29,158 bases of DNA. Source: Cytophagales bacterium (GTDB lineage: Bacteria; Bacteroidota; Bacteroidia; Cytophagales; Microscillaceae). The notes beneath the pieces are model-generated. The model was given only the letters and a program-made list of their open reading frames with translations. It was not told where the DNA came from and made no database searches. Location: contig JAAFJK010000329.1 in NCBI GenBank assembly GCA_013298105.1, forward strand, positions 1 through 29,158, in the 5' to 3' direction. Numbering within the stretch: position 1 is the stretch's first letter; each line of letters opens with the position of its first letter. The position numbers were made by a program, and so were the translations under genes. Shown here piece by piece: positions 25,384-28,098 of this stretch.

Positions 25384-25415
25384 CTTGCCTACCCACACAG
25401 CGCGGGCAGGCAAGG
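25384..25415. terminator. 32-bp palindromic element CTTGCCTACCCACACAGCGCGGGCAGGCAAGG, the left boundary of low-GC island 2
   Basis: Near-identical to 28066-28098, same orientation, same loop ACACAGCGC. Confidence 0.6.
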
Positions 25416-25418
25416 GGG

Positions 25419-26240
25419 TTATGCTAAATTATAAAATCTGTCATGCATTTCTCGCAATAAAGTTTGTATTTTTTTTGGTATTCCGTTTGTTGAATTATTT
25501 AGTTTTCTGTCTGTATCCTTTGTTCTCTCGTCTTCATAGTGATACCCATGATATTTGCCTTCTTCATGTGAGTAAAACTCGATAAACCTTTCATTTTTAG
25601 TGTCATAATTGCACAAATTATTTTCACTGTTGGGTTGGATAATGGCTATATTCAACAAAAATTGAGCATCTTCTTGTTCACAACACAACATACGTGATTC
25701 GTTTGGATATTCTCTTTTCCCGCACCAACCATGCTTAGGATTATTTTCGAAAATTCTTTGTTGTTTTTGTGCTATATCTTTGTCAAAAACGTGGCGAGTA
25801 AATGTAATTTGGCTTATTTCAGTGTTTTTGTCAATAACATGAAGTACAATATTATCTGTATTCCACACATTATTTGTTTGAAAACTGATACAAATTGTAT
25901 TTTTTAAATAAGCCATTGACAAGCCTTTGGCTTCTTTGTCTTGATAATAAAAAGCCTTGTCAGTGTATTCAAAGTAAGGACTGCCAATATCAGTTAAATT
26001 TTTTCTAAAAGCATCTCTCAAATCACTATTTACTTCTTCATCTTTTAGCCAATTTTCAATGATATATCCTTGCGTCAATTCAATATTTTTAATGCTTTTA
26101 TTTGCAAAACGCATCCTTATAAACCCTATATTACGAATGGCATTTGTAGTTCTTATAAAATTACGCATTACTTCGCGTGCTTCTTCTATAGTCGCTACCA
26201 ATTCTATAGAAAGCTCATTCAAAATGTATTCTAATTCCAT
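25419..26240 (-). CDS. Hypothetical protein, third gene of the DUF262-ATPase cassette. It contains a Cys-rich segment (HGWCGK...MLCCEQED)
   Basis: ORF 4 nt downstream of the ATPase stop. ATG at 26240 (MELEYILNEL); the track begins 4 codons earlier on TTG. AT-rich. Confidence 0.5.
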   Translation of the reverse strand: MELEYILNELSIELVATIEEAREVMRNFIRTTNAIRNIGFIRMRFANKSIKNIELTQGYIIENWLKDEEVNSDLRDAFRKNLTDIGSPYFEYTDKAFYYQDKEAKGLSMAYLKNTICISFQTNNVWNTDNIVLHVIDKNTEISQITFTRHVFDKDIAQKQQRIFENNPKHGWCGKREYPNESRMLCCEQEDAQFLLNIAIIQPNSENNLCNYDTKNERFIEFYSHEEGKYHGYHYEDERTKDTDRKLNNSTNGIPKKIQTLLREMHDRFYNLA

Positions 26241-26244
26241 AAAT

Positions 26245-27399
26245 TTAGTCAATAAGTTGGTCTAAAATTATACCCCATTCATCAAAAAGTCCTTTTGGGC
26301 GTTTGTTTATACCTCCATTTTCATCAATTTTGATTTGTATAGCTTCACTATAATCTTGCTTTTTAGTGAAATAATACAAAGCTATTTTTTCTGCGTCAAT
26401 AATTTGTTTTTTTGCACACAATCGACTTGCATTAAATACATGGTCGCTGTGCGTTTCACAAAAAATCTGCACACCATTTTGTGCCGCAAGAGCCATGAGT
26501 TCCGTTATTTTGGATTGCCCTTTGGGGTGCAAATGCGCCTCTGGGTTTTCTATAATTATCAAATCGCCTTTTTCTGCTGTGAGTAGGGCTAAAATAACAG
26601 AAAATGTATAACTTATACCAAAGCCTACATTAAAAGCCTTGAAAGGTTTACGAGGTATTGCACCTATAGAAAAGCTATATTTTTGTTCAATTGAAGTAGC
26701 ATTTTCTTCATCTATAGACGCTACCTGCACATTTGGGCTTATTTCGCCAAGCCACGCATTTATTTGACTTTCTAAACTTAAATCTATATTTTTTGATGGG
26801 AAAGATAAAGCTGGAATCGGTATTGGTTTAGCTCTATTGGTTACAAAATAGTGCATAGCATAACGTCCATCTATACCAAAATTTTTATGTTGGACACTTA
26901 AATTGTTTTTTGGCAATTCATTTTGATTGGCAATTCTATTTGCTTGTATATATTGAAATTTATTTTTTTGAAAAATTGATTCTTCAAAAATATTTTTTTG
27001 AAAGTCATGTGAGATAGCTATCACATTATATCCTTGATTTTCTAAATTAGTTTTTATATCATAGCCATAATTTTCTGTTTTTATTGAGCCTTGTTTATTA
27101 TCAGAAAAACTAATAGAAAATTGTAAATAAGGTTCTTTCTCCTCAAAATCTTGATAAATAATATCTTCATAATTACCCATTACTACTAAATCGCCTTTTT
27201 CTGTATCTTCGCCTAAGTATAAAGTTTTAGCTGTTTTGGTAAGAAAACCCTTAAGGTGTGATTGTCTGAGTAATAGCAAGGCTTGAATAAGTGTGGACTT
27301 ACCCATACCATTCATACCTGTTAAAATATTGAAATTTTGACAAGTAATTTTTACATTTTTTAAAGATTTGAAATTTTTAATATGGATTTCTTTTATCAT
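26245..27399 (-). CDS. ABC/SMC-head-type ATPase (AAA_21/DUF3696-like)
   Basis: Walker A GMNGMGKST. Walker B LIIIENPE. H-loop ETHSDH. NVGFGISYTFSVILALL and ENPEAHLHPKGQSKITELM. Its ATG overlaps the TGA of the upstream gene (ATGA). Confidence 0.7.
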   Translation of the reverse strand: MIKEIHIKNFKSLKNVKITCQNFNILTGMNGMGKSTLIQALLLLRQSHLKGFLTKTAKTLYLGEDTEKGDLVVMGNYEDIIYQDFEEKEPYLQFSISFSDNKQGSIKTENYGYDIKTNLENQGYNVIAISHDFQKNIFEESIFQKNKFQYIQANRIANQNELPKNNLSVQHKNFGIDGRYAMHYFVTNRAKPIPIPALSFPSKNIDLSLESQINAWLGEISPNVQVASIDEENATSIEQKYSFSIGAIPRKPFKAFNVGFGISYTFSVILALLTAEKGDLIIIENPEAHLHPKGQSKITELMALAAQNGVQIFCETHSDHVFNASRLCAKKQIIDAEKIALYYFTKKQDYSEAIQIKIDENGGINKRPKGLFDEWGIILDQLID

Positions 27400-27995
27400 T
27401 GTATTGGCAAGCCTTTTATTGATGATGTAAGATTATTTAACTTTTCTTGAAGTATCATATCTTGTGTATGTTGTATTCTTTGGGCTTGTGCTGAAAGTTC
27501 TTTCTGCTCAAGTGCTGATAGCCTACTTGAATTGATAGATTGATACATTTTTTGTTTTACATATTCTGAAGTAGGTGGAAGAATATAATGTACTTGTGTA
27601 GCATATTCTAATAAACTGCGTTGCACATATCGTGGCAATTCAGAAAAATATTTACCGTCAAACTCTGTAGGCAAAAAGTTCAAGTTTTGTAGATTGTAAG
27701 CATTATTTTTGACAAATTGCCCCAAAGCCTCTAATCGTTCCAAACCATCAATTATTGTCCATTCCCAATGATTTGATGATTGTAAGTCAAAGTAAAAAAA
27801 GGGTGTTGGGTGCTTGAGTATAAGAGATTCAATATATTGGCTCTTTGTGGTTGTATCCCAAACAGTTTTTTCTGAATACCATGCAGCGTTATTATTTCTG
27901 TATTGTTGCCTTATTTGGTTATGATTGAATTTGACAACAAGTTGTTCCAAAGAAATAACGTTGTATTTTATGTTAATTTTTGACAAATCTACCAT
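27396..27995 (-). CDS. DUF262 (ParB/GmrSD N-terminal domain)-like protein
   Basis: WTIIDGLERLEAL matches the DUF262 (I/V)DGQQRL signature. YIESLILKHPTPFFYF matches the upstream hydrophobic box. 199 aa with no DUF1524/HNH half. Confidence 0.55.
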   Translation of the reverse strand: MVDLSKINIKYNVISLEQLVVKFNHNQIRQQYRNNNAAWYSEKTVWDTTTKSQYIESLILKHPTPFFYFDLQSSNHWEWTIIDGLERLEALGQFVKNNAYNLQNLNFLPTEFDGKYFSELPRYVQRSLLEYATQVHYILPPTSEYVKQKMYQSINSSRLSALEQKELSAQAQRIQHTQDMILQEKLNNLTSSIKGLPIQ

Positions 27996-28065
27996 ACATT
28001 TACTTGGATTAGTTATGCAAAAGTATAATTATATAATCAAATTTGCAAATATAAAAATCAAAAAT

Positions 28066-28098
28066 CCTTGCCTGCCCACACAGCGCGGGCAGGCAAGG
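28066..28098. terminator. Perfect palindrome CCTTGCCTGCCCACACAGCGCGGGCAGGCAAGG flanked by A5 and T5. It is a bidirectional terminator and the right boundary of island 2
   Basis: Read from the sequence. Confidence 0.65.

Follow-up and report, generated by a model that had tools for sequence, protein, structure and literature searches.

The 29,158-nt contig JAAFJK010000329.1 (assembly GCA_013298105.1), which comes from a Microscillaceae-like Cytophagales metagenome-assembled genome (MAG) and is hereafter called the window, carries on its minus strand a cassette of three genes that belongs to the Menshen anti-phage system. The genes encode proteins of 199 aa (27995..27396), 384 aa (27399..26245) and 273 aa (26240..25419). 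The last of these is counted from its ATG, as the open reading frame (ORF) listed for gene 3 reaches a TTG at 26252. Genes 1 and 2 overlap by 4 nt (caATGAtaa) and genes 2 and 3 are separated by a gap of 4 nt (TAA attt ATG), which agrees with the tight coupling described in a first-pass annotation of this DNA. A copy of a 32-nt hairpin-forming repeat lies at each end of the cassette.

Searches with PADLOC profiles assigned gene 1 to NsnA (1.1e-33), gene 2 to NsnB (7.8e-100) and gene 3 to NsnC (8.6e-30, with matches to five more NsnC models). The matches fall in the co-directional, linked NsnA-NsnB-NsnC order that defines Menshen, and type I is the closest form (Millman et al. 2022; Li et al. 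2025, PMC12065111). Pfam recognized AAA_15, AAA_21 and DUF3696 in gene 2; the Pfam search was empty for genes 1 and 3, and NCBIfam has no family for either. Homologues of all three proteins are located in canonical Menshen loci, and intact trios are present at other genomic loci among those compared (L002, L056 and L058). The cassette is thus a known system in a rare variant. The first-pass annotation had proposed an uncharacterized defense system in which a ParB/DUF262 protein and an ABC ATPase are combined with an effector, the whole being foreign in composition and bracketed by hairpins. The defense-type operon, the co-occurrence of its genes in other genomes, the foreign composition and the bracket all held up. 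Its statements that the combination is not a named system and that gene 3 has no recognizable domain gave way to the three profiles matching in order and to the six NsnC models, respectively.

Protection against phages has been demonstrated for the Menshen system of Solibacillus silvestris only, which acts against T2, T4, T6 and Fado (Millman et al. 2022, as described in PMC12065111). A 2025 survey of 1,997 Menshen loci, in which NsnB and NsnC were always accompanied by NsnA, proposed a scheme with NsnA as sensor, NsnB as transducer and NsnC as effector (PMC12065111). In that survey NsnA universally consisted of a ParB-DUF262 domain followed by ParBDB (NsnA-C), a C-terminal eight-helix DNA-binding domain (PMC12065111).

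The NsnA of the window (27396..27995, minus strand) is a short form with the ParB-DUF262 domain only. The PADLOC match covers just positions 40-190 of the 385 in the profile, and Pfam PF03235 gives no score even at E=10; the protein was assigned to DUF262 because of the PADLOC NsnA profile and because its homologues carry PF03235. A phmmer search against 1.84 G representatives returned 1,723 matches, the best of which are mostly 350-530 aa long, with similarity that stops near query residue 165. Aligned with these long relatives, the window NsnA terminates right behind motif III. The residues behind DUF262 form a poorly conserved 34-aa tail, ParBDB is absent, and the start of NsnB already lies in the ATGA overlap. 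By comparison, the 80 best metagenomic relatives include no complete NsnA ORF with fewer than 113 aa past the DUF262 match (nearly all have 165-210 aa there), and most are then followed by an NsnB gene; full-length NsnA proteins are also encoded in L056 (537 aa) and L059 (526 aa). The sequence motifs of the window protein have changed as well. Motif I (QRxxxW) reads SEKTVW and has lost its QR, motif II (DGxQR) reads DGLER, and motif III (FxxxN) reads YQSIN. Neither a profile search nor a single-sequence search of PDB sequences with NsnA retrieved a relative. The first-pass annotation had recognized a DUF262-like DGxxRL signature in gene 1 and singled out the missing DUF1524 half as the oddity. 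The DUF262 part stands through PADLOC, although not through PF03235, but the absence of DUF1524 is normal for NsnA, and the true anomaly is that ParBDB is missing.

Short NsnA forms were found in three places only: the window, L002 and L058. L002, from a second MAG (GCA_043748375.1, Cytophagales bacterium), carries the trio intact but elsewhere in the chromosome, flanked by ispG and yajC, and its 190-aa NsnA is 81% identical to that of the window. The NsnA of L058 (694-1215, 173 aa) is only 26% identical to the window protein, has a degenerate motif III and overlaps the start of NsnB by 32 nt; its trio is otherwise intact, with an NsnC 58% identical to that of the window. This form may represent an independent loss of ParBDB.

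We calculated dN/dS (the ratio of nonsynonymous to synonymous substitution rates) by the Nei-Gojobori method, comparing NsnA and NsnB of the window with L002 and NsnC with L056. The values were 0.11 for NsnA, 0.15 for NsnB and 0.073 for NsnC. Within NsnA, residues 1-165 gave 0.084 at a dS of about 0.9, and the 34-aa tail gave 0.44. The extreme C-terminus of NsnA differs between the window and L002 through a shift of the stop codon. The DUF262 core of NsnA is therefore under purifying selection rather than in decay. Because an intact L002 trio exists elsewhere, dN/dS is low and a further short NsnA occurs in L058, we conclude that the short form has been maintained; NsnA without ParBDB is rare and appears to be functional.

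NsnB (26245..27399, minus strand) is an ABC/SMC-head ATPase of 384 aa with a DUF3696 tail. It is full length, with residues 1-383 aligned to positions 1-343 of the 345 in the PADLOC profile. The protein has a Walker A motif (GMNGMGKST), a Walker B motif ending in EN (IIIEN), a GFG signature of the GxG type, an H-loop (ETHSDH) and the DUF3696 helix, which are the traits described for Menshen NsnB. Pfam and the motifs agree with its earlier description as an AAA_21+DUF3696 SMC-head ATPase.

Comparison with other loci revealed that NsnB is a mosaic. Residues 1-322 are 94% identical to NsnB of L002 and the last ~60 residues are unrelated to it, whereas residues 258-384 are ~93% identical to NsnB of L056 and residues 1-250 only ~40%. 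The protein is thus L002-type from residue 1 to ~255 and L056-type from 258 to 384. NsnC follows the tail, as it is 77% identical to NsnC of L056 and 25-29% identical to that of L002. The operon is a recombinant, with NsnA and the NsnB core from one lineage (L002-like) and the NsnB tail and NsnC from another (L056-like). The crossover falls in the invariant stretch between Walker B and the H-loop, and therefore the DUF3696 tail travels with NsnC. In AlphaFold3 (AF3) models, paired DUF3696 helices of NsnB clamp the N-terminal inPIN domain of NsnC (PMC12065111). The breakpoint, which lies just before the DUF3696 tail, fits this predicted contact and provides independent, sequence-based support for an interaction between the NsnB tail and the NsnC N-terminus.

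NsnC (25419..26240, minus strand, 273 aa) appears to combine an N-terminal domain of the NsnC type (inPIN class) with a C-terminal BECR-like domain. The PADLOC NsnC models cover residues 5-174 and 9-266. An AlphaFold2 (AF2) model of the full-length protein was poor (pLDDT, a predicted local distance difference test score, of 55), and the N-terminal fold could not be discerned from it. A model of residues 150-273 was better (pLDDT 73.6, predicted template modeling score, pTM, of 0.72) and places four antiparallel strands (model residues 51-53, 56-64, 69-77 and 80-85) between a core helix (40-48) and a C-terminal helix. Similarity of this fold to BECR domains has low scores, and a Foldseek search of the C-terminal model against the PDB gave no significant match. 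Nine residues (R162, K169, H170, N211, Y212, D213, Y230, H231 and H234) are invariant in nine NsnC sequences, one of them a second NsnC encoded in the window.

A group of BECR-Tox2-like domains was described with an unstructured N-terminal extension carrying KH and with a second His that starts β4; these domains mostly form the C-terminus of NsnC in Menshen-like loci, and one member was toxic in E. coli (bioRxiv 10.64898/2026.08.28.747851). The window NsnC shares the core helix, the four antiparallel strands, the KH extension and the strand His, and it differs in that its close subfamily has an additional four-cysteine patch (C172, C184, C185 and C209) in the KH extension. The Cys-rich patch reported at first pass is therefore present but confined to the close subfamily rather than a family-wide feature. 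Because the invariant KH, the strand histidines and the model topology match the BECR-Tox2-like description, we predict that the NsnC C-terminus is an RNase of this type. The effector family is rare, with 10 relatives among 5.8 billion proteins. A DUF2103-like identity was rejected for the effector, since that match belongs only to a distant relative (P0161).

The cassette also differs from its surroundings in base composition. Its GC content is 0.307 compared with 0.419 for the remainder of the window, and GC at third codon positions (GC3) is 0.20-0.25 in the cassette genes and 0.41-0.48 in the genes for MVP (a major vault protein homologue), CBM, HK and DegT, so that the AT-richness reported at first pass was borne out when measured. 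A host 11-mer, GG[CT]AGGCAAGG, occurs 27 times exactly in the window and 35 times with at most one mismatch (0.34 expected). It has no copy in 25416-28065, where ~2.5 would be expected at host density; this absence, also remarked on earlier, is weak evidence of foreignness if taken alone. Between the window and L002, dS was 0.57-0.88 for NsnA and the NsnB core and ~1.6 for MVP, in a comparison that is rough because GC3 is very different between the genes. Together, dS and composition point to an exchange of the cassette after the two lineages split. Because GC and GC3 differ from the host and dS is lower than for MVP, the cassette is horizontally acquired and compositionally foreign to its host.

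The region upstream of NsnA (27996..28065, minus strand) contains a promoter with TTTG (28049-28046), a 20-nt spacer and TACTTTTG (28025-28018), followed by the ATG at 27995. These motifs fit the -33/-7 consensus of Bacteroidota promoters, and a scan for sigma-70-type promoters ranked the same site first. DNA homology with L002 begins at 28050, and both promoter motifs are kept in L002.

The upstream boundary is formed by a hairpin (28066..28098, minus strand; arms 28061-28077 / 28087-28103) of the form CCTTGCCTGCCC-loop-GGGCAGGCAAGG with flanking A and T tracts. It is the top terminator-like site on the minus strand (-32.3 kcal/mol, z -5.5) and probably serves the upstream CBM-like gene (28106-29128) as intrinsic terminator. 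The downstream boundary is a second copy (25384..25415, minus strand; -28 kcal/mol) that begins 3 nt past the NsnC stop codon and has neither A nor T tract and no U-tract. As stated at first pass, the palindromes at 25383-25415 and 28066-28098 have the same orientation; none is expected in shuffled sequence. These 33-nt copies differ in their first base (T or C), so that the direct repeat is strictly 32 nt (25384-25415 / 28067-28098), identical at 31 of 32 positions with one internal A/G change. The upstream repeat ends ~15 nt before the conserved promoter region, and only the three Menshen genes lie between the two copies.

We found a third, inverted copy directly after the MVP gene (22769..22804), with a loop longer by 3 nt (TAT) and A6/T6 flanks. 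Like the upstream copy it has A and T tracts, and these two copies fold at -31 to -32 kcal/mol. Related GGGCAGGCAAGG hairpins are present at 1487-1573. The hairpin is a dispersed host repeat of the terminator type and is not specific to the cassette. It resembles the repetitive extragenic palindromic (REP)-like hairpins and bidirectional terminators in its GC-rich 12-bp stem, its A/T tracts at gene 3' ends, its multiple copies in both orientations and its construction on the 11-mer that is over-represented genome-wide. It differs from them in that two direct copies abut a foreign cassette and one of these is without A/T tracts. We saw no RAYT-type transposase in the window. As a separate observation, the ACACAGCGCGG word, comprising loop and stem sequence, has a third match at 28138-28148, 40 nt away and within the 3' end of the CBM-like gene (3 in all, 0.28 expected); this copy may have been left by an older hairpin or have arisen by chance.

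To place the bracket in context, we compared complete Menshen trios with random pseudo-cassettes. Flanking direct repeats were present in 4 of 45 trios and in none of 365 pseudo-cassettes (Fisher p = 1.3e-4). Besides the 32-nt repeat of the window, these are a 132-nt repeat in L056 (2187-2318 / 5871-6002, 97% identity) that comprises the 3' end of ispG and intergenic DNA, a 58-nt repeat in L073 (2051-2108 / 5840-5897) that contains a terminator hairpin, and a 206-nt repeat in L089 (1311-1516 / 5172-5377) that begins with one. Three of the four repeat-flanked cassettes thus have a terminator hairpin in the repeat, the fourth being L056 with its ispG end. The repeats of L056, L073 and L089 are 97-100% identical and enclose neither an integrase nor a tRNA gene. 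A tRNA-linked integrative island was rejected for the window cassette, as its boundary has no tRNA and no integrase; no tRNA gene was found in the window, L002, L056, L058, L073 or L089. The hairpin pattern itself was not found in the 55 loci compared. Exact look-ups of the flanking CBM-like and MVP proteins gave no record. A genome scan with MVP, which found 49 loci, did not recover an empty site, because synteny upstream of MVP is not kept in the nearest relatives; the two closest loci (L007 and L054) have unrelated genes there.

We lean towards the interpretation that the upstream terminator was duplicated when the cassette inserted, for instance when a circle bearing the repeat integrated through a single crossover. 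The alternative, that ordinary dispersed REP-like terminators happen to lie on both sides and leave no insertion scar, has in our view a little less than an even chance. A copy with the same basic loop in the opposite orientation after MVP, the related hairpins at 1487-1573 and the 35 occurrences of the 11-mer are all consistent with coincidence, as is L002, the closest cassette, which has no flanking repeats; in addition, the Logan assembly of the locus is interrupted at the hairpin, a usual outcome where a repeat has several copies. However, the flanking copies are nearly identical, share one orientation and lie within 3-15 nt of the cassette, and the downstream copy is without the tracts of a free-standing terminator. 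None of 169 other sliding positions at the cassette spacing in the window shares a repeat, and the other three bracketed Menshen cassettes have unique repeats of 58-206 nt, which argues against chance placement.

Two of the compared cassettes have a common neighbor. In L002 (5180-9839, with the short NsnA) and in L056 (212-5869, with the 537-aa NsnA), the Menshen operon stands directly downstream of ispG (gcpE), which suggests that ispG is an insertion hotspot in this clade.

We consider it likely that the cassette is a horizontally acquired, recombinant Menshen operon with its own promoter and a ParBDB-less NsnA, inserted at the hairpin of the upstream gene. Under the sensor-transducer-effector scheme from the literature, an oligomer of the ABC ATPase NsnB would hold NsnC through its C-terminal DUF3696 helix. 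The ParB-DUF262 protein NsnA would relay a signal that changes the nucleotide state of NsnB, and NsnC would then be released or activated. Its predicted BECR-type C-terminal RNase, with the KH and last-strand histidines, would cut RNA and so abort the infection. The cassette probably arrived by insertion at the terminator hairpin of the upstream gene, with duplication of the hairpin. Several points weigh against this account. ParBDB, a universal part of the DNA sensor in the published model, is absent from the window NsnA. The changes from QR to SE in motif I and from Q to E in motif II may mean that the protein is catalytically altered or vestigial, and its tail is relaxed and of different length in the two related copies. 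The dS comparison is rough, as noted above, and the recurrence of the hairpin within the window means that the bracket could be two ordinary terminators.

The first three of these points could also be explained if the cassette were a decaying Menshen remnant, in which the sensor became inactive when ParBDB and the QR of motif I were lost and which persists as a recent arrival or because NsnB restrains a toxic NsnC. The survey reported sporadic domain loss and pseudogenization in Menshen (PMC12065111), motifs I and II are both non-canonical, the NsnA tail is variable, and a second Menshen-derived module in the window has no NsnA. We regard decay as unlikely, however, given the strong constraint on the DUF262 part at substantial divergence. 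Two genomes carry all three ORFs uninterrupted, at different loci and under a conserved promoter, recombination has kept a compatible pair of tail and effector, and a second short NsnA of low identity occurs in the intact trio of L058.

The second module (17769..19827, plus strand) comprises an NsnB-like gene (17769-18911, with a listed ORF that begins at a GTG at 17736) and an NsnC-like gene (18913-19827). PADLOC matched them to NsnB (8.8e-99) and NsnC (2.1e-42), Pfam found AAA_15 and DUF3696, and the NsnC-like protein carries the same C-terminal domain with KH, NYD and YHxxH. No NsnA precedes the module; the upstream ORF (16418-17713) is of the lipoprotein type and has no DUF262 match. A tblastn search with the module against the compared loci retrieved no syntenic relative, and an exact look-up of its NsnC gave no record. 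Its GC content is near the host value and it contains the host 11-mer; it is probably an older resident.

The presence of this NsnA-less pair 6 kb from the cassette is in keeping with a second alternative, in which NsnB and NsnC act as a two-gene unit similar to PARIS or Septu, with the ABC ATPase restraining the nuclease and the short NsnA being an accessory or a modulator in trans, possibly for the 17769-19827 pair. Published AF3 modeling recovered NsnB-NsnC complexes and no confident contacts for NsnA (PMC12065111), and NsnB also matches profiles of the ATPases of these systems (AriA 1.4e-29, GajA 4e-17 and PtuA 3e-14). We judge a two-gene unit to be more doubtful than decay. The two NsnB proteins of the window are only 33% identical, NsnA is strongly constrained and translationally coupled to NsnB by the ATGA overlap, and all of the surveyed loci had NsnA together with NsnB and NsnC. 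A new, unnamed defense system that joins DUF262, an ABC ATPase and an effector of its own, as the empty Pfam and NCBIfam results for genes 1 and 3 might imply, is highly improbable and is refuted by the strong PADLOC matches of all three proteins to Menshen in the right order and by their homologues in canonical Menshen loci.

Set beside type I Menshen, the cassette shares the gene order, the tight coupling, a ParB-DUF262 first gene, an NsnB with EN Walker B, GxG signature and DUF3696 tail, and an NsnC with a variable N-terminal part and a predicted C-terminal nuclease-type domain, together with modular shuffling of NsnC. It differs in the absence of ParBDB, in the altered motifs I (QR to SE) and II (DGLER, not DGxQR), and in an effector domain of a rare family.

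Other defense systems with related components were considered and rejected. The Type IV restriction systems GmrSD, SspE and BrxU (DUF262 with DUF1524) likewise use a ParB-like DUF262 NTPase domain as a phage-defense sensor. In the cassette, however, there is no DUF1524 HNH domain and no middle (ParBDB-equivalent) domain, and the predicted nuclease is on a separate protein controlled via an ABC ATPase; neither Pfam nor PADLOC found DUF1524 in NsnA, which ends after DUF262. PARIS (AriA-AriB), Septu (PtuA-PtuB) and Gabija (GajA-GajB) are similar in having a nuclease effector that is held or regulated by an oligomeric ABC ATPase of the OLD/AAA_15 type. Their profiles score at least 60 orders of magnitude weaker than the NsnB profile, which is the best match, and the neighboring effector is neither Toprim nor HNH and matches NsnC models only, with a third, ParB-type component present. 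Membership in PD-T4-2 was ruled out by the PADLOC results.

The neighborhood of the cassette is rich in defense genes, as judged by the second NsnB-NsnC pair, a methyltransferase with a helix-turn-helix (HTH) domain and a PD-(D/E)xK protein. The methyltransferase (10091-12808, plus strand) is a 905-aa protein with HTH_17, a PglX-like middle and an N6/N4 DNA methyltransferase domain (Pfam 1.8e-55; PADLOC MTase_II 2e-88). The surrounding region, ~9700-14300, has the highest AT content in the window (GC 0.26-0.33), is also without the host 11-mer and looks like a second foreign island. The PD-(D/E)xK protein (22079-22729, minus strand, 216 aa) matches a CRISPR-associated nuclease profile (PADLOC PD_DExK 1.4e-14) and adjoins the MVP gene downstream; a 37%-identical relative is encoded near MVP in L007. 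The product of the MVP gene itself (22812-25292, minus strand) is a bacterial protein homologous to the major vault protein of eukaryotes (MVP_shoulder 9.7e-31, Vault_3 2.7e-09); it is 56-90% identical across Cytophagales MAGs and isolates and has matches at 40-43% in Lachnospiraceae, Oscillospiraceae and a Methanobrevibacter assembly.

Two repeated elements were observed in addition. The 11-mer GG[CT]AGGCAAGG occurs on both strands, inside genes and in hairpins, with three overlapping copies at 9-nt spacing in 21766-21794, and the nearest relatives (L002, L007 and L054) have it too, less densely. It could be a word of the uptake, Chi or REP type. A 73-nt element is present twice (4214-4286 and 5725-5797), with 22-nt inverted arms (AGCCACGCTGTAAGCGTCTGTT ... 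AACAGACGCTTACAGCGTGGCT) and a 29-nt spacer. Its copies bracket an adenylate/guanylate cyclase gene (4377-5648), and it looks like a miniature inverted-repeat transposable element (MITE) or a REP element.

The classification of the cassette is unchanged by these results. It is a known system and not a new one, and what is unusual is the ParBDB-less NsnA, the mosaic operon and the BECR-Tox2-like appearance of the NsnC C-terminus; its boundary repeats follow a pattern that is also seen at other Menshen loci. The enrichment of flanking repeats in Menshen trios hints at how small, recombinase-free defense cassettes insert. A broader proposal, which we put forward tentatively and think rather unlikely, is that Menshen cassettes, and perhaps other integrase-free defense cassettes, move via short duplicated repeats of terminators or gene ends, and that the ParBDB-less mini-NsnA is a working sensor. 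An excised circle would retain a single copy of the repeat and insert again at any place where this sequence is found; here the portable site would be the multi-copy REP-like terminator hairpin, and the cassette could hop among hairpins. In the current model of Menshen, the DUF262 and ParBDB domains of NsnA together form the DNA sensor (PMC12065111). If the proposal is true, the DUF262 domain alone would suffice to trigger NsnB and NsnC. A naturally ParBDB-less NsnA under purifying selection provides a ready-made test of whether ParBDB is needed, and the short NsnA shrinks Menshen to a smaller construct for biochemistry.

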